From IMG/VR virus record IMGVR_UViG_2740892445_000002: a stretch of DNA of 48,538 nucleotides; one strand, written 5' to 3'. Shown in pieces: positions 24,404 to 36,440 of the stretch. Every line of letters starts with the position of its first letter. Position 1 is the stretch's first letter. A program made the position numbers and the translations under genes. The stretch comes from a virus. Lineage: Duplodnaviria > Heunggongvirae > Uroviricota > Caudoviricetes. The notes beneath the pieces are model-generated. The model worked only from the letters and a program-made list of their open reading frames with translations, had not been told where the DNA came from and made no database searches.

Positions 24404-24946
24404 ATGAACAGATACTCTAAACTTCAAATTCAATTACATTGGCTGACTCTCGTATTAATAGCTATAGCCTGTGCTGCAATGGAACTTCGAGGTTTGTTTC
24501 CTAAAGGGTCTTCCTCCTATTTGCTTATGAGAGAAACACATTACAATGCTGGTATATTTATTCTTCTACTGATGATAATAAGAGTAATTATCAATAATAA
24601 ATATATAACACCAGCTATTACGCCGCCCCCACCTGCATGGCAAATGATATCAGCCAAATTCATGCAAACCCTGTTATACATATCTTTTTTGGTGTTACCA
24701 GTATCAGGACTTGCAATCATGGTTTTTGGAGGTAAAGCATGGAGCCTTCTGGGGATTGATATTCCCACTTTCGCTAACACCGACGGAGAAGTAAAATCCG
24801 TAGCCAAAACTATTCATGAATCACTTGCAAATATTGGTTATTTATTAATCACACTCCATGCTGGCGCTGCATTAATTCATCATTATATTCAGAAGGACAA
24901 TACACTTGTCAGAATGCTCCCTGAGCACCAGCATGATAAAAAGTGA
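24404..24946 (+). CDS. cytochrome b561 family protein (moron in bor position)
   Basis: 180 aa, four predicted transmembrane helices, conserved His positions typical of the CybB/b561 family. Confidence 0.8.
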   Translation: MNRYSKLQIQLHWLTLVLIAIACAAMELRGLFPKGSSSYLLMRETHYNAGIFILLLMIIRVIINNKYITPAITPPPPAWQMISAKFMQTLLYISFLVLPVSGLAIMVFGGKAWSLLGIDIPTFANTDGEVKSVAKTIHESLANIGYLLITLHAGAALIHHYIQKDNTLVRMLPEHQHDKK

Positions 24947-24992: not shown

Positions 24993-25020
24993 ACACTCTG
25001 TACCTCAGTTTCAGTGACTA

Positions 25021-25527
25021 TTAATACGTCTCTGTCAGATAACTTGAATCTCTGACTGAATTATAAATGCGTTCACATGTCAATCCAGCGCGGTAATTTT
25101 CGTCAGCGCGTTTAGCATAATATCCAGCTTCTTCTGCAAGGCTTCCGAGCATGTCGGCGAGCATTGCGACGTTGCTTTCGATTGTTTTGCTTCTGACGGT
25201 AGCGGCAATATTTGCGGTATGCTCTGCCGCTTCCAGTCTGACGGTAAGCTTTGTTGCTTTTTCCCGCAACTGACTAACAGTGGCAGATAAACCAGCAGCA
25301 GTAGCATTGGCTTTGACAGCTTTCTCTTGTGCATCTTTGACAGCCTCATCACGGGCAACAATACGCCCCTGTTCAATCATCCTGACAGCAATCTGCGTAT
25401 TAACAATCTGCGACGACTCTTCACTGTCCCGCTCAGCCCATTTCGTTTGCCATTCTCTTTCACACCAGACATTTCCAGCAATAAATGAGCCAATTGACAG
25501 CAATACAATGGCCACAAGCTTAATCAA
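25021..25527 (-). CDS. Rz: i-spanin (Rz-like)
   Basis: 168 aa, N-terminal TM helix then coiled coil; start overlaps endolysin stop (ATGA). Confidence 0.8.
   Translation of the reverse strand: MIKLVAIVLLSIGSFIAGNVWCEREWQTKWAERDSEESSQIVNTQIAVRMIEQGRIVARDEAVKDAQEKAVKANATAAGLSATVSQLREKATKLTVRLEAAEHTANIAATVRSKTIESNVAMLADMLGSLAEEAGYYAKRADENYRAGLTCERIYNSVRDSSYLTETY
25080..25307 (-). CDS. Rz1: o-spanin lipoprotein (Rz1-like) embedded in Rz in +1 frame
   Basis: Internal Met then MLLLLVYLPLLVSCGKK lipobox; fully nested within Rz. Confidence 0.6.
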   Translation of the reverse strand: MLLLLVYLPLLVSCGKKQQSLPSDWKRQSIPQILPLPSEAKQSKATSQCSPTCSEALQKKLDIMLNALTKITALD

Positions 25528-26057
25528 TTATCTATCCCCCAGCACGTCAGCATGCTTTCCTGGTCACGCCGTGATACCTGACCAGAGCAGTTGTTTGAGC
25601 GAATACGGCAGTCTTTGCCACCATCCTTAATCCACCAGCGAATCGCCTCGCAGGCACCTTTACGATCACCGGCATTAAGCCGCTTATAAAACGTCGACGG
25701 GAAACACTTACCTGGGCCAATGTTGTACGGACAGAACGACGCGATACCTGCTTTCTGCGGTTCAGTCAGCGGTACCTGGATATTTTCCTCCACCCACGCC
25801 AGCGCCTTATTGCGCTCGATGGCGTTCACCTGCTCGCATTTTGTCTTCGTCAGTTTCATGCCAGGAACGACAGGCTTACCGTCCACCATTGTGGCACCAC
25901 GGCAGATGGTCCAGATACCCGTACCATCACGGTATGCTGTTATGTGGTTGCCTTCCTTTTCATCCAGAAACTGGTCGAGAATTTCAGGCGCAGAAGCCCC
26001 TGCGGCAATCAGCGCCAGAACGGCAGCCGACAGGCCGTATCTGATTTTTGTGTTCAT
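25524..26057 (-). CDS. R: SAR-type endolysin (GH24 lysozyme R)
   Basis: 177 aa; N-terminal Gly/Ala-rich signal-anchor segment, catalytic E...D...T region (EKEGNHITAYRDGTGIWT). Confidence 0.9.
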   Translation of the reverse strand: MNTKIRYGLSAAVLALIAAGASAPEILDQFLDEKEGNHITAYRDGTGIWTICRGATMVDGKPVVPGMKLTKTKCEQVNAIERNKALAWVEENIQVPLTEPQKAGIASFCPYNIGPGKCFPSTFYKRLNAGDRKGACEAIRWWIKDGGKDCRIRSNNCSGQVSRRDQESMLTCWGIDN

Positions 26058-26174
26058 GGGGATTTATCGTTTTTTAATCTCTTGATATGTTAAGTATATA
26101 ATCCAACACTCATGGCAGGTCTCATAAACATATCCCTTGAGACACAACAGATAACAACAAATGAGGCCTTATAA

Positions 26175-26489
26175 ATGAACAGTAAAGAAAGTTTGCGCAG
26201 AAGATTTTTACAACTAATGACAGAAAACGTTAAATCAGAGTTACTTCTTCAGATGGCGGACAATAACGAAGTAACGAGCAGCATTCTTGCAGACCCTTAC
26301 GGTAAACTCTCACATAAAACGCTTGATATTATTACCACAACATTAACACCACTGATGCTTCAACGGCTGAAACATAATATCAACGCATGGGTTAATGAAG
26401 AATTAAGTCCTCCCTGCTTATGGGATTCTCGTTACGCATGTCAGCAAAAAATGCGAATTTTCAACTTACTATCACCAAAGCTCAGGTAG
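26175..26489 (+). CDS. hypothetical protein, YdfR-like (DUF1327-type), opposite strand between holin and endolysin
   Basis: 104 aa, AT-rich gene with GAGG Shine-Dalgarno 8 nt upstream; position matches ydfR of Qin. Confidence 0.55.
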   Translation: MNSKESLRRRFLQLMTENVKSELLLQMADNNEVTSSILADPYGKLSHKTLDIITTTLTPLMLQRLKHNINAWVNEELSPPCLWDSRYACQQKMRIFNLLSPKLR

Positions 26490-26744
26490 CCATAAAATCC
26501 TGCCCTTCATGGCATACAGGATATCAATGGAATCACAATGACCGCCTCTTGCACAGCTGTGTCCCTGACACCCCGACAACTCAAATTTTCAGTATCTTCT
26601 GCTATCTAAAGAGAAAGCATACAAAGTCAAGGACCTTTCATCACATCCTGTTATTGATTGCCTGTTACCTTTGCATACCTCAGGGAACGTTTTTTCAGTT
26701 AGAAATATTCATTTTACAACCAGTTCGTATTTTTTATTCATCGA

Positions 26745-26960
26745 CTACTCTCCCCGCGCCGCCTTACGACGGTCCTCTTTAATCTTGAAGTACAGGTTCG
26801 TCAGGTACGTTAACAGACCAAACAGCAGACTCCCCAGCACGCCTATTGCCGCCCACTGAGACGGGGATACCCTGTCCAGCAACTGCAGGAACCAGTATCC
26901 CGTCCCCACCGCAGACGTGGTGTATGACACACCTGTTGTGATTTTTTCCATCTGGTACAT
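26745..26960 (-). CDS. S: class II holin (phage 21 S-like pinholin) with dual-start motif
   Basis: 71 aa, ...[45 protein letters not shown] as in S21; Met1 and Met4 dual starts. Confidence 0.9.
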
Positions 26961-27037
26961 ATCCCCGCCTCCCGTTCACCGGAAGCGCACGATAATAAAA
27001 GACCACCGCAATATGCTGGTGGCCTGTGCGTCATGTA

Positions 27038-27343
27038 TCACAGCATGGTTGCTGGCTCCGGCTGCAGAACATCATTTGGTTGTTCCTCACCACCGGTTTG
27101 TGCCTCAGGTCGTTCGCTGCTGTTTTCCACCGGAGAATCTGCTGTATTCTCACCATCCCCTGCCTGTGGCGCAGATGCCCCCTCAGCAGGTCCGATAAGC
27201 TCATCCAGAATCGCTTCCACATCCGCATCAATCTGAGCCTCAAACGTTTTACGGATAGACGCTTTCAGCGTCCCGCGGACTTCTTCAGTGCGCAGCGCTG
27301 ACTTCACTGCATCAGCAGTGACCAGTTTTTTCATTTCTGTCAT
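27038..27343 (-). CDS. hypothetical acidic protein upstream of holin
   Basis: About 101 aa from internal Met (MTEMKKLVTADAV...), acidic C-terminus. Confidence 0.45.
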   Translation of the reverse strand: MTEMKKLVTADAVKSALRTEEVRGTLKASIRKTFEAQIDADVEAILDELIGPAEGASAPQAGDGENTADSPVENSSERPEAQTGGEEQPNDVLQPEPATML

Positions 27344-27368
27344 GGTTTTTTCTCGCTGTAAGATGTGA

Positions 27369-27545
27369 TTACGGGAGGGACGTGGACTTTGGCTCTGCTG
27401 ACTGACCGGCACTGATTTTTTCAGCCGCCATGGCATCAATCTTTTTACAGATGTAGTTTCGGATGATTTTATAACCGCCACTAACCAGATACAGTGCACA
27501 CACAGCCGTACAGAAATACAGCTGTATTTGCTGAATAAATGACAT
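27369..27545 (-). CDS. possible small membrane protein (58 aa)
   Basis: Hand-found ORF MSFIQQIQLYFCTAVCALYLVSGGYKII... below the track length cutoff; weak RBS. Confidence 0.25.
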   Translation of the reverse strand: MSFIQQIQLYFCTAVCALYLVSGGYKIIRNYICKKIDAMAAEKISAGQSAEPKSTSLP

Positions 27546-27707
27546 ATACCCTTACCTTTAATATTGACTGGAGAAACAGTTTTAAGGTAAAAAATTACTG
27601 AGTTAATGGTTATCTCTTATTGCAAGCATTGTATCCCTTTATGGGTTGTGAATATCACCCGCCAGTCAACAAATGGCTCTTTGACCGGCGGGATTTTTTT
27701 ATCCTGC

Positions 27708-29642
27708 TTACGCGTTATTCACTTCCACCACAATGCTGTCAATCAGCACCGGGTATGTTGCACCATTAGTGATATCGGTCACACGCAACTTGTCTGCCGT
27801 AAAAATTCCGACAGTGGACTGCGACAGCATGAACGGCGTCCCGTCCTTACCATCAATGACCGGCGTCACCTCAATACTGTTGTTACCGGCGAAACGGAAG
27901 CCCAACGTATGCCATTCGTTATTAAATGCACCGAATGACCCCAGTTTCATGTTTTGCGCCGTATCGCCCTTGTGGTACATCACGTTAAGGTCTGTCGCAT
28001 CGCTCTGAACGTAAAAAGATGCCAGCAGGTTATGACCAGCATTACCTTCCAGGGTAACCCCTTGTGGCAGGGCAGAAACCGGCCAGTACAGCGCCAGTGC
28101 GTACTGATTAGCCGTAAGCGCGCCATCAAGTTTAAAACGACAACTGACAAGGCCGCCTTTGCCCAGCAGGTCGGCACCATTACCGGCATCATGTTCCAGG
28201 TACCAGGAGGATTTTCCCGTCGCTTTGGTAAGCTTCATCGCCTTACCTCCACTGGCTCCGGCATCATCCACAACAGCGGCACTACCTCCGCCAGCCCCCC
28301 AGCCCTGTGGAGTCAGTTGTCCTTCCGAATCGCTGGCCCTGTATGCAAACAGTGTTGTCATCCCGGTAGTTTCACCCGGTGATGTTGATGGAGTGTCAGG
28401 TGATGGCTTCTCATCCGGTGGTGTCACGGCCTGCCCGCCCAGCAGTTCAGCCGTGCGCCCTGCATGGAGCAGAATAGAGGAGGCCAGACGGTCAGAAATG
28501 ATGCCCCTGCGTGCCCATGAACTGAAATGGCTGTCACGCTGTGTCGAGACAAAACTGCCCTGGGTACGGGATGCCGCACCGTAATACCCGACAGCCACAA
28601 TATCCGGATCTTCCGTCGGAGCATTCGTTGGCGTGTTCTGTCCATTCTCATCCGTCAGGAACGGTACAAAGAAAATATTCTGAGTTTCCTTGCCTTTGTA
28701 GCCACCGTATACCGCCTCATATTTATCGGTGCCAGCGTTTTTCCAGTAATATGTCGTATCACCACAAATCCACGGCACCGTGCCAGCATTTCCACTCACA
28801 CACTGCACAGCAAGCGGAGACAGGTCAGTTCTGAACTGCTGAACCATGGTCGTGAATAAACCATTATGCTGCTGACTTCCCGATGCAAGGTCTGCTTCTC
28901 CCTGCATCCAGACCACTGCCAGAAGTTTGTTTTTCGGGTTCTTCGCCAGCGCCGCTCTGGTACGGCTTACCAGGTCCTGATACAGAGGTTTACCGACTCC
29001 CCAGCGTGAAGAATCAGCGGAAGCACCGCTGGCCTCACTGAATGAACCGTCCGGCCCGGTGGTGAATGCTGACCCGCCACGGCAACAGGGCACCAGAAGT
29101 ATCCCGGCATTCTGCGGGATATAAGGCAGCAGTTTTTTGGCAATATGCAGCCCCTGACTCACACAACCATACTGCCCCTTGTTCAGGTCAGCTTTTGGGT
29201 GGTTTATCCCGCTCATGTCCTGCACATCATGCAGGCAGTGGTCTGCCGGAATGATGTCATTGTATTTACACGGCGTACCACCTGGCGTGACCGTGCTGCG
29301 GCGTGCCAGTTGCTTAATCCGTGGATCCGGGCGGTCAAATGAATCCGGTAACGGAAGCCCTTCACCATAGGCCATGCCATTTGACTGCCCCGCCAGAACA
29401 ACAACAAAGTAATATTCTGGCTCACTGACTGTGCTCATTACCGTACCGCTGTCACCCGACGGCTTCACCACAACAGGCGTGGTGACATCACCCTCCGCTG
29501 CAATCGCCTGCATCAGGGTATAAGGCGTAATAGCAACCGGACTGCCAAACGGCTGCCAGCCTTCCTTCAGTTTTTGTGACAGTCGCTCCGCAAGCTCTGA
29601 CGGTGAAGCCGCCCTGACCACACCATAATGCTTAAATGTCAT
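27708..29642 (-). CDS. nanS-p: prophage sialate O-acetylesterase (NanS-p-like, SGNH hydrolase)
   Basis: Start set at Met35 behind GGGAGGAG Shine-Dalgarno; protein resembles the NanS-p esterases found downstream of stx in Stx phages. Confidence 0.8.
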   Translation of the reverse strand: MTFKHYGVVRAASPSELAERLSQKLKEGWQPFGSPVAITPYTLMQAIAAEGDVTTPVVVKPSGDSGTVMSTVSEPEYYFVVVLAGQSNGMAYGEGLPLPDSFDRPDPRIKQLARRSTVTPGGTPCKYNDIIPADHCLHDVQDMSGINHPKADLNKGQYGCVSQGLHIAKKLLPYIPQNAGILLVPCCRGGSAFTTGPDGSFSEASGASADSSRWGVGKPLYQDLVSRTRAALAKNPKNKLLAVVWMQGEADLASGSQQHNGLFTTMVQQFRTDLSPLAVQCVSGNAGTVPWICGDTTYYWKNAGTDKYEAVYGGYKGKETQNIFFVPFLTDENGQNTPTNAPTEDPDIVAVGYYGAASRTQGSFVSTQRDSHFSSWARRGIISDRLASSILLHAGRTAELLGGQAVTPPDEKPSPDTPSTSPGETTGMTTLFAYRASDSEGQLTPQGWGAGGGSAAVVDDAGASGGKAMKLTKATGKSSWYLEHDAGNGADLLGKGGLVSCRFKLDGALTANQYALALYWPVSALPQGVTLEGNAGHNLLASFYVQSDATDLNVMYHKGDTAQNMKLGSFGAFNNEWHTLGFRFAGNNSIEVTPVIDGKDGTPFMLSQSTVGIFTADKLRVTDITNGATYPVLIDSIVVEVNNA

Positions 29643-29846: not shown

Positions 29847-29851
29847 GTCCA

Positions 29852-29876
29852 TAAAAAAGCCCCTCCGGAGAGGGGC
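29852..29876 (-). terminator. intrinsic terminator after repeat unit 1
   Basis: Minus-strand GCCCCUC-UCCG-GAGGGGC followed by UUUUUUAU. Confidence 0.6.
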
Positions 29877-29898
29877 ATACTAGCTATATATCCATTTA

Positions 29899-30026
29899 TC
29901 ATTGGCTGCGTGGTGCCGGGTGCCTCCCGGTGAGCTCAGTCTGGTGTCACTGAGCCCGCACATTCTCGATCCAAGTTATCGTCGGAGATAATACCTGATA
30001 CACCAGACGCCCCTCCGCACAGGGGG
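29899..30026 (-). repeat. tRNA-like cloverleaf repeat unit 1 (candidate structured ncRNA)
   Basis: Conserved blocks GGTGCCGGGTGCCTCCCGGTG and CCCCTCCGCACAGGGGGATTCACCA; terminal stem CGTGGTG/CACCACG; variable interior. Confidence 0.5.
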
Positions 30027-30263
30027 ATTCACCACGCGCAGAGAAGGATACTGAACACTATTTTCTCCAGGCAATATGCAATAACATGAAGTGTGAGATG
30101 ACTTACAATTATAAAAAACAGCCTACAGAATACTCCTAAATAAAGCCATATCAAAATGAGTAACACAAAAAGGAACCAGGCAAAAATTTACGAGCAGGTA
30201 TTATCCAGCAACAGTTCAGACGCCATAACTTATTGCCGATAGCTACCATCAATAATTTCTTTC

Positions 30264-30289
30264 ATAAAAAAGCCCCTCTGAAGAGGGGC
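30264..30289 (-). terminator. intrinsic terminator after repeat unit 2
   Basis: Minus-strand GCCCCUC-UUCA-GAGGGGC followed by UUUUUUAU. Confidence 0.6.
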
Positions 30290-30316
30290 TGACATACGCA
30301 TTTGCTTTCATCATCA

Positions 30317-30439
30317 ATATGGCGCCGGGTGCCTCCCGGTGCTCCATAACTGATTAATATGGAACGCGGTTTCATTCAGTTGCATTCATGAATAACACTC
30401 TAATCAGTCCGCCCCGCCGCTTAGGGGGATTCGCCATAT
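30317..30439 (-). repeat. tRNA-like cloverleaf repeat unit 2 (candidate structured ncRNA)
   Basis: Same blocks with compensatory changes (GGCGCC... / ...GATTCGCCA); terminal stem ATATGGCG/CGCCATAT; interior closed by ACTGATTA/TAATCAGT. Confidence 0.5.
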
Positions 30440-30574
30440 AAATTGAAAGTACTGAACACATCTGTCACAAACAATATGCAATTGTATGAATTGTGAGATT
30501 ATTATCAATAACACAAAATTACAGCTCTAGTACATAAACAGCAGATTAAACAAGAACAACAAAAGTATTGAATT

Positions 30575-30697
30575 GCACGGTGCCGGGTGCCTCCCGGTGA
30601 ATTCTGCAATGACCAGACAGAATCCGCAACTTGCTACTAACGCTAATGCGACCAAGCCTCAGTCATTATGCCCCTCCGCACAGGGGGATTCACCATG
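30575..30697 (-). repeat. tRNA-like cloverleaf repeat unit 3 (candidate structured ncRNA)
   Basis: Same conserved blocks; terminal stem GCACGGTG/CACCATGC (one mismatch); interior closed by AATGAC/GTCATT. Confidence 0.5.
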
Positions 30698-30827
30698 CGC
30701 TAAAAAAATACAAAACGTCACGTCACTCTGACAATACGAAGCACCATAAAATGTGAGTTATTTATCAATTCTTAATTCTGGTTACAGGAATATTCCGAAT
30801 CAAATCTTTAAAAAAAGAAATTCAAAT

Positions 30828-30930
30828 GCATGGTGCCGGGTGCCTCCCGGTGAACAGACCGTCCGTGATACCAGTAGGCAACACAGGAAATTAATGGTAT
30901 CACCCCACCGCACAGGGGGATTCACCATGC
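30828..30930 (-). repeat. tRNA-like cloverleaf repeat unit 4 (candidate structured ncRNA)
   Basis: Same conserved blocks; terminal stem GCATGGTG/CACCATGC; interior closed by GTGATACCA/TGGTATCAC. Confidence 0.5.
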
Positions 30931-31320
30931 AGGCGTTTTCTTAGCAAACTAACTGCGCGCCCGGCAACTCCCAACCACATAAAACGTGGAGTTTGTAGCA
31001 TTTATGCACATAACTCACAGGGGTTATCTTAAAAAAAGCTGACCATGCTTCCCCGGCAACGCAATAACTTTATTCCCTGAAGTGGCATCCCCCGTATTGT
31101 CGGCAGGCTCAAAAAGGAGCCAGTCATCTGAGGATGACTGGAAAAAGGAAAGATAAAAAATTATTCATCATACAACCTTCGTTGCAGGGGAGAATCCTGC
31201 GGTGCAGCAACATACAAAAACATAAGCCAACTAACAATATGCAGGCATAGCATTTTCGGATTTTGTTATATGGCACGGTAACTGAATGCTTACCTGATAT
31301 ACAGTCCGGTATAAAGTTGC

Positions 31321-31582: not shown

Positions 31583-31660
31583 TGCTGGACCGTCACCGGG
31601 GACTCGAACCCCGCATTTTCAACATAAAAAGGTTGATGCTCTTTCCTGATGAGCTAGTGA
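31583..31660 (-). tRNA. tRNA-like gene with 8-nt anticodon loop CUUUUUAU (Lys-UUU-like; possible variant or pseudogene)
   Basis: Acceptor stem CCGTCAC/GTGACGG, D arm GCTC-ATCAGGAAA-GAGC, T arm CGGGG-TTCGAGT-CCCCG, encoded CCA; anticodon loop one nt too long. Confidence 0.55.
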
Positions 31661-31662
31661 CG

Positions 31663-31737
31663 GCATGGTTGCCTTGCTGGATTTGAACCAGCGACCTGGC
31701 GATTATGAGTCTCTCGCTCTCACCACTGAGCTAAAGG
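31663..31737 (-). tRNA. tRNA-like gene with CAU anticodon (Met/Ile2-like), imperfect acceptor and anticodon stems; possible pseudogene
   Basis: D arm GCTC-AGTGGTGA-GAGC, anticodon loop CTCATAA, T arm GCTGG-TTCAAAT-CCAGC, CCA; only 4 of 7 acceptor pairs form by my reading. Confidence 0.45.
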
Positions 31738-31780
31738 GCCGGGAACAGAATAATAATGGTGCGTAATTAATTCTGCAATC

Positions 31781-36107: not shown

Positions 36108-36263
36108 TTACTTCTCAGATTCGTAAGCTGTGAAGACAGCGACCTCCGTCTGGCCGGTTCGGATTCGTACCTCGCAGAGGTCTTTCCTCGTTACCAGTAC
36201 CGTTACAACGACGGTAATACAGATGACGATCAGGGCGATTAGCATCGCCTTTTGCTGCTTCAT
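36108..36263 (-). CDS. hokD: Hok-family type I toxin (HokD/RelF-like)
   Basis: 51 aa MKQQKAMLIALIVICITVVVTVLVTRKDLCEVRIRTGQTEVAVFTAYESEK, near-identical to my recollection of HokD. Confidence 0.9.
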   Translation of the reverse strand: MKQQKAMLIALIVICITVVVTVLVTRKDLCEVRIRTGQTEVAVFTAYESEK

Positions 36264-36440
36264 AGCCTGCTGCTCCTTGCCTTTCGGCGCGTAAGAGGCT
36301 AATCTAAGTGTGCAAGTCATAGATATGGCCTCAGATTAATGTTAAGCGTCCTGCAAGACGCATAATGTTAACTGGGGCTTTTCTCTGTCTGCCTTACGTC
36401 GGCATGCCCGAGGCAGACAGCCTCAAGCACCCGCAGCAAT
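36264..36440. promoter_or_regulatory. hok mRNA leader / mok start / antisense Sok region
   Basis: Minus-strand leader GGGUGCUUGAGGCUGUCUGCCUC... resembles hok mRNA 5' end; in-frame upstream start MTCTLRL... Confidence 0.45.

Follow-up and report, generated by a model that had tools for sequence, protein, structure and literature searches.

In phage lambda, bor is an opposite-strand gene that lies beside Rz and is expressed in the lysogen, and the definition of a moron is that of Hendrix and Juhala. In the Stx2-converting phage 86, two genes separate the holin gene S from the endolysin gene R, in the order S, orf5, orf6, R; Orf5 is a protein of 268 amino acids, encoded on the late strand, in which an N-terminal DUF1327 domain is combined with a conserved C-terminal domain. 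In the Qin prophage, the corresponding slot is occupied by ydfR, and the DUF1327 domain of K-12 YdfR binds the catalytic (N-terminal) half of RNase E and copurifies with RNA (PMC13232886). Here we compare with these systems an open reading frame (ORF) of 104 amino acids that lies between the holin and endolysin genes of a lambdoid prophage of Escherichia coli, the window being the whole stretch of 48,538 nucleotides analyzed. The literature searched on DUF1327/ydfR, on essQ/rrrQ, and on holin, endolysin, and moron topics held nothing on this ORF.

The lysis cassette and its opposite-strand gene

The late genes of the prophage lie on the minus strand, in the order SASA/DUF6645 esterase, DUF1378, DUF826, holin, spacer, endolysin, Rz-like DUF2514, and terminase genes, and a 1-kb probe over the locus was 100% identical to strain M18, from mouse, and 99.9% identical to strains M1, M3, and CI5. 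The holin (26745-26960, minus strand, 71 amino acids) is a P21-type class II holin, or pinholin (PF04971 "P21 holin S," E value of 7e-33; phrog_20 and phrog_9876, holin), and carries the dual-start motif MYQM. The endolysin (25524-26057, minus strand, 177 amino acids) is a SAR endolysin of the lysozyme type (PF00959, E value of 7e-25; phrog_7), annotated as rrrQ lysozyme in M18, and its translation displays an Ala/Gly-rich, SAR-like N-terminal segment and an E-x8-D-x5-T triad. The lysis cassette ends with an Rz-like i-spanin of the DUF2514 family (25021-25527, minus strand; PF10721, E value of 2e-44). The sequence-only reading of this DNA had placed the pinholin and the SAR endolysin 687 bp apart, and the gene coordinates, together with the PF04971 and PF00959 matches, bear this out, the spacer being exactly 26058-26744. 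Its GC content is 0.381, compared to 0.534 for the endolysin gene and 0.546 for the holin gene. In AU5Stx1 and AU6Stx1, S lies next to R (matches H44 and H45, with a 318-bp span for 314 matched bases). Two features by which morons are recognized are thus found here, namely, insertion between genes that abut in relatives and a deviant base composition (GC of 0.38 versus 0.53 to 0.55).

Other features were noted outside the spacer. Within the DUF2514 Rz-like gene, but in another frame, an ORF at 25080-25376 (minus strand) encodes a lipobox-like LLVSC and a proline-rich tail and may be an o-spanin gene, the counterpart of rzoQ in Qin. Just past the Rz-like gene, a cytochrome b family gene (24404-24946, plus strand; GC of 0.33 to 0.43), which is preceded by a YlcI/YnfO gene, has the orientation opposite to that of the late genes and resembles a further accessory insert of AT-rich DNA. 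The STnc100 sRNA occurs as four copies in tandem (29847-30960, minus strand; Rfam RF02076, 77 to 133 bits) between the esterase gene and two phage tRNA genes (31586-31741, minus strand). To the first of these ARAGORN assigned a four-base anticodon, "tttt," and to the second CAT; the names given by PGAP in M18 are tRNA-Lys and tRNA-Ile. A sok antitoxin RNA (36258-36432, minus strand; RF01794, 115 bits) would imply a hok/sok-type module within the prophage.

The AT-rich plus-strand ORF of 104 amino acids that the sequence-only reading had described is present in the spacer, at 26175-26489 (GC of 0.384). It belongs to PHROG family 1853 (function unknown), the profile of which it matched with an E value of 4.1e-45, residues 1 to 102 aligning with profile positions 57 to 158 of 159. 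The ribosome-binding site attributed to it also stands: a Shine-Dalgarno-like GAGG (26163-26166, plus strand) precedes the ATG by 8 nt, and every aligned homologue has a purine-rich box in the same place. An ORF of at least 104 codons arose in 46 of 2,000 mononucleotide shuffles of the spacer; conservation and dN/dS ratios are stronger evidence for a gene than is ORF length. By the Nei-Gojobori method, dN/dS was 0.13 to 0.32 in all unsaturated comparisons (20 pairs, including pairs of alleles that both lack the partner gene described below), each pairwise value summing over time possibly spent in the paired state. The ORF differs from the allele of EDL933 at 9 of 315 sites (2.9%), six of the nine differences falling at third codon positions, whereas the noncoding flanks differ at 30 of 333 sites, 12 of 117 in the 5' region (10.3%) and 18 of 216 in the 3' remnant (8.3%), thus indicating that the ORF is the most constrained and slowest-evolving segment of the insert. 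Among homologues, its length and N terminus are kept down to 22% identity, and it was intact in all 48 window-type copies found on viral contigs. Taken together, these allele comparisons show that the plus-strand ORF truly encodes a protein and is under purifying selection.

The position of the start codon deserves comment. PGAP starts the gene at an internal ATG, at 26217, giving a model of 90 amino acids (a cluster of 220 members on about 1,000 contigs). The first 14 residues of the longer frame are conserved across the family, while Met15 is not, being replaced in P0022, P0025, and P0033, and this supports the start at 26175. The 90-residue model is therefore probably too short, and we prefer the 104-residue one. 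A second plus-strand frame, of 120 amino acids (26420-26782), overlaps the gene and is open in both the window and the EDL933 alleles; it was rejected as coding, since 19 nucleotide differences cause 15 amino acid changes in it and it has no family match.

With regard to expression signals, a candidate promoter precedes the gene (26074-26102, plus strand), made up of a perfect -10 box, TATAAT (26097-26102), a 17-nt spacer, and a poor -35 box, TTAATC (26074-26079, 3 of 6 matches). A consensus scan made no promoter call, because the -35 box has fewer than 4 of 6 matches. The -10 block is kept in most of the aligned E. coli-type alleles (the window, EDL933, L004, L019, and L020); it is degenerate (TACAAT) in L016 and absent from phage 86, and the -35 box is poor and variable. 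The putative 5' leader contains an inverted repeat read from the sequence, GTCTCA-N13-TGAGAC (26119-26143, plus strand), the sequence of which is kept in L016, L019, and L020 and largely in EDL933, without covariation; we regard it as a putative operator or 5' stem-loop. A fold of the region 26100-26180 that sequesters the Shine-Dalgarno sequence had a z score of -2.7, but it finds no support, since the substitutions in EDL933 break it without compensation. More distant alleles have instead a GC hairpin and a T run upstream of the ORF. Downstream, the hairpin that had been reported past the ORF stop (AUCCUG...CAGGAU, about 26497-26522, plus strand) does exist, but it folds no better than shuffled sequences (z score of -0.20). 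With this z score, no U tract, and no call in the terminator scan, it was rejected as a terminator, and neither the scan nor folding against shuffles revealed a credible terminator after the 104-amino-acid gene.

Relation to ydfR and the ancestral gene pair

The sequence-only reading had matched the ORF to ydfR, the DUF1327 gene located between essQ and rrrQ in Qin. The slot between holin and endolysin is indeed common to both, and the two products are of nearly equal length (104 versus 103 amino acids), but neither the family nor the strand agrees. In Pfam, the ORF gave no DUF1327 signal at any threshold, and direct comparison with YdfR gave an hhalign probability of 0.13% and a BLASTP E value of 2.4, while the positive controls for PF07041 were readily detected (K-12 YdfR, 1e-53; phage 86 Orf5, 4e-45; PhiR12 protein, 2e-34). 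In Qin, PhiR12, and phage 86, the ydfR-type genes lie on the strand of the holin and endolysin genes, which in Qin is that of essQ and rrrQ, and the ORF has the orientation opposite to that of all ydfR-type genes seen. In addition, the spacer does contain a real relic of ydfR, but at another place (26709-26741). Homology to ydfR-type proteins, on which the proposed match depended, is thus absent; the identity with ydfR is already refuted at the sequence level, and we conclude that the 104-amino-acid ORF is, judged by profile and pairwise comparison, unrelated to YdfR/DUF1327.

Relatives of the ORF nevertheless have a YdfR-family gene for a neighbor. Alleles closer to that of the window than the phage 86 one (63 to 77% identity) are accompanied by partners of 189 to 222 amino acids, which do not contain DUF1327 and keep the C-terminal domain (C-domain), and the 3' ends of partner and small ORF abut or overlap by at most 21 nt. 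The C-domain is marked by the motifs GRCMGxLQxAAEIE and NPPFK, and PHROG 1085 corresponds to the full partner, in which DUF1327 and the C-domain are accompanied by a coiled coil. The small-ORF relatives of lowest identity (22 to 47%) were found in Salmonella-type loci, where the pair follows Q and HicAB or ParE modules and precedes a different holin gene (holin_2_3 or holin_3_1); here too the two genes are convergent, and they are adjacent or overlap by 18 to 33 nt. In the Salmonella-type prophages L184 to L186, L189, L190, and L008, the pair directly follows HicAB or ParE/HTH modules and lies between Q and holin_2_3, a location that differs from that in E. coli. The partner family has named members in Escherichia, Shigella, and Salmonella. 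At the 46 C-domain loci that have the small ORF, the genes are convergent and the two alignments lie -14 to +66 nt apart. These data show that the ancestral context is a tail-to-tail pair, composed of a late-strand YdfR-family gene with the C-domain and the small gene. As the two genes are still convergent and adjacent at different positions and beside different holins, in E. coli as well as in Salmonella, the pair moves as a unit.

In the window, only traces of the partner are left. Three nucleotides past the holin stop, an ATG at 26741 opens a minus-strand stub of 10 codons, MNKKYELVVK* (26709-26741), which compares with MNKQYELVVK in PhiR12, MKKKYELVVK in phage 86, and MTQDYELVVK in K-12. 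The surrounding 39 nt (26706-26744) are 94.9% identical to a gene annotated as "YdfR family protein" (H89) and 89.5% identical to phage 86 orf5 and its relatives. To judge from these identities, the stub is what is left of a YdfR-family (DUF1327) gene at its 5' end. The approximately 215 bp that separate it from the small ORF (26490-26705) are a noncoding remnant, with stops in all three minus-strand frames. The 8.3% divergence of this remnant from EDL933 is near the pS of the ORF, 0.091, and thus about the neutral (synonymous) rate. A part of it, 26537-26668 on the minus strand, weakly resembles the partner C-domain (tblastn, 14 of 44 identities with three stops, E value of 0.001 in a tiny search space), the resemblance being centered on the GRCM...AAEIE motif. 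DNA homology to alleles that have the pair ends just past the stop of the small ORF, at about 26496, and the DNA at 26497-26705 had no match outside this cassette type. The simplest reading of this layout is that the partner gene would have been internally deleted and would then have decayed. Overall, these results show that the insert once consisted of two genes, of which the one for 104 amino acids survives in the window and the late-strand partner has been destroyed.

Distribution of the two genes and the predicted protein

PHROG 1853 comprised 17 clusters at 90% identity, with 20 representatives among 1.84 billion proteins, and was shown to be a small family confined to prophages of Enterobacteriaceae. 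All 78 flank-bearing loci among the 79 viral ones, as well as the loci from NCBI, Logan, and ENA, placed the gene in the neighborhood of lysis genes and opposite to the late strand. The same insert was present in 626 of 5,426 complete E. coli genomes (about 12%), including O157:H7 EDL933, O55:H7, O145, O111, and O103. The gene is thus widespread, in prophages of these serotypes and in the Stx2 phage 86; it is everywhere annotated as hypothetical, and its annotated start is often 14 residues too short.

The two genes are not always found together. The 79 loci on viral contigs divided into 48 orphans of the window type, 26 with the pair, and 5 other orphan configurations, and the small ORF occurred without its partner in at least three independent configurations. 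Conversely, 46 of the 83 C-domain loci had the small ORF and 37 did not; in the latter, the partner is intact and either abuts the endolysin gene or is followed by other inserts. Since each gene occurs alone, the two are separable and there is no asymmetry of the kind seen with toxins and antitoxins, an asymmetry that we rejected on account of the C-domain standing alone at these 37 loci. Decay of the surroundings was observed at some orphan loci: the ORF is kept in L020, a decayed remnant in which the endolysin gene is reduced to its 5' end, and in L019, adjoining IS110, lysozyme-like DNA lies beside the ORF with no gene called there. In EDL933 (L013, 1-650 and 4600-6655), the prophage is broken by IS66/ISEc8 and another transposase, near a PerC-family regulator gene, and the small ORF of this cassette copy is still intact despite the disruption.

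The slot itself receives other genes as well. Unrelated opposite-strand ORFs were found between S and R in L002 (2770-3030, plus strand; 86 amino acids, phrog_2572), L134 (3704-4054, minus strand), and L151 (2516-2866, minus strand), the ORF in the last two being of 116 amino acids. The first is the "DUF1823 containing protein" of PhiR12, the DUF1823 match of which was itself below threshold (E value of 0.023). Like the small ORF, these are short frames that converge on a YdfR-family gene in the S-R slot; unlike a relative, the PhiR12 protein has no detectable homology to the 104-amino-acid protein, and remote homology between the two was rejected at an hhalign probability of 0.2%. The holin-endolysin junction thus behaves as an exchange hotspot: at P21-type junctions, YdfR-family genes of varying domain content come with or without unrelated opposite-strand ORFs.

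The predicted product is a basic, soluble protein of 12.1 kDa (pI 9.3) with no transmembrane segment (maximum KD19 of 0.52), and its AlphaFold2 model is a five-helix bundle (pLDDT of 83, pTM of 0.72), for which no informative structural neighbors were found. The ORF had no match in Pfam, NCBIfam, PADLOC, or PDB; in Pfam, this held at an E value of up to 0.01 for the ORF and of up to 10 for the ORF together with ten relatives. Four partner variants also had no PADLOC match, the partner C-domain had none in PDB, and no relevant RNA family was found by Rfam in 25000-28000 at an E value of up to 1. The 104-amino-acid gene is, in sum, a catalogued yet uncharacterized prophage accessory gene, in a newly recognized two-gene context.

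Possible roles and comparison with known systems

A moron expressed from the prophage would fit the base composition, the orientation, and the fact that S and R adjoin each other in relatives. With somewhat more confidence than doubt, we favor the explanation that the ORF is a real gene left over from a decayed two-gene cassette, a self-transcribed moron, and possibly an antagonist of the YdfR family. In the lysogen, the gene would be transcribed from its own candidate promoter, with the -10 box at 26097-26102. Late transcription, which depends on Q, would have to cross the gene in antisense, given its orientation against the late operon, and after induction this head-on transcription may shut it down. 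The product, a basic five-helix protein of 12 kDa, would bind another protein, most plausibly the C-domain of the YdfR family.

The functional part of this explanation is more tentative. Gene neighborhood suggests that the small protein might be a binding antagonist or regulator of the late YdfR-family protein, useful alone against incoming relatives, and we favor this as the most likely mode of action, although we give it less than even odds. That the convergent pair is so deeply conserved suggests that the small gene is functionally coupled to the YdfR-family C-domain; against such coupling, the partner C-domain is intact without the small ORF at 37 of 83 loci. An orphan copy could still have targets, namely, the homologous proteins that incoming lambdoid phages encode, and this would account for the retention of the gene. 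Given that the DUF1327 domain of YdfR binds RNase E and RNA (PMC13232886), the module may bear on late RNA decay rather than on lysis itself. A bolder version, which we hold to be unlikely, is that the small ORF and the YdfR-family C-domain form an undescribed two-component module, in which a late factor linked to RNase E and RNA would be opposed by a helical 12-kDa antagonist, expressed head-on in the lysogen, and in which the orphans of about 12% of complete E. coli genomes, O157:H7 included, would interfere with incoming phages that depend on this factor.

The main rival carries about the same weight as the antagonist reading and is as tentative. It holds that the gene is an independent lysogenic-conversion gene, directed at a target in the host or at unrelated phages (for instance, in superinfection exclusion or through a physiological effect), and that its adjacency to the partner reflects no more than a single ancestral insertion and tight linkage. 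This would agree with both genes being found alone, with the moron-like composition of the small ORF, and with its intactness in the strongly decayed remnants L019 and L020 and in the IS-ridden EDL933 prophage. It accounts less well for a pair that is still adjacent and convergent at 30 to 40% protein identity across Salmonella and E. coli, at different positions and beside different holins in an otherwise mosaic region, and the lack of a PADLOC match also speaks against it.

We regard it as improbable that the partner C-domain was a toxin and that its loss left the small protein behind as an orphan antitoxin or immunity protein. The two genes do form a module, and many genomes retain the small one by itself; they are, however, convergent rather than arranged as an operon, the putative toxin is intact without the small gene at 37 of 83 loci, and, as part of the late operon, it would be expressed only in cells about to lyse. 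PADLOC and Pfam, moreover, gave no toxin or antitoxin domain. Still less probable is that the relevant product is the RNA, acting as an antisense RNA or by transcriptional interference on the holin gene or the late operon, the ORF being incidental. In its favor, the geometry is convergent, the stretch from the ORF stop to the 3' end of the holin gene contains no terminator, and a weak terminator-like site (26919-26933) lies in antisense at the start of the holin gene, but the constraint on the ORF is clearly at the protein level, 0.5 to 0.8 kb of partner gene lies between the ORF and the holin gene in most relatives, and in Salmonella the holin gene lies behind the ORF. Furthermore, Rfam gave no match at an E value of up to 1, and the hairpin at 26905-26960 folds no better than shuffles. 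The initial idea, that the ORF is itself a ydfR-type (DUF1327) gene, keeps a negligible probability.

Returning to the moron that may antagonize YdfR-family proteins, a gene that is not ydfR, selection on it after loss of its partner, and a neighboring family whose N-terminal domain was recently shown to bind RNase E together provide a testable lead for two uncharacterized families of prophage proteins. Should the gene prove to be just one more moron without a known role, the finding would be ordinary.

Of the known systems, phage 86 is the closest. Its Orf6 (BAF34038.1) is 52% identical to the 104-amino-acid protein over 86% of the length (tblastn), is likewise 104 residues long, and is encoded on the opposite strand between S and R, the difference being that the convergent partner, orf5, is intact there and destroyed in the window. 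With K-12 YdfR (PF07041, Qin) the locus has in common the holin-endolysin slot, a 10-codon relic of such a gene being present in the window, and DUF1327 forms the N terminus of the usual partner of the small ORF. YdfR has, however, no sequence relation to the 104-amino-acid protein and is encoded codirectionally with the lysis genes, and binding of RNase E and RNA is a feature of YdfR. Finally, the gene resembles morons of the lambda bor type in being an extra gene between normally adjacent ones, with a deviant composition, an orientation against the late genes, and a -10 box of its own. It differs from bor in that its product is predicted to be a soluble, cytoplasmic helical protein and not a lipoprotein, and from morons in that it usually has a convergent late-strand partner and in that its promoter and terminator are putative.
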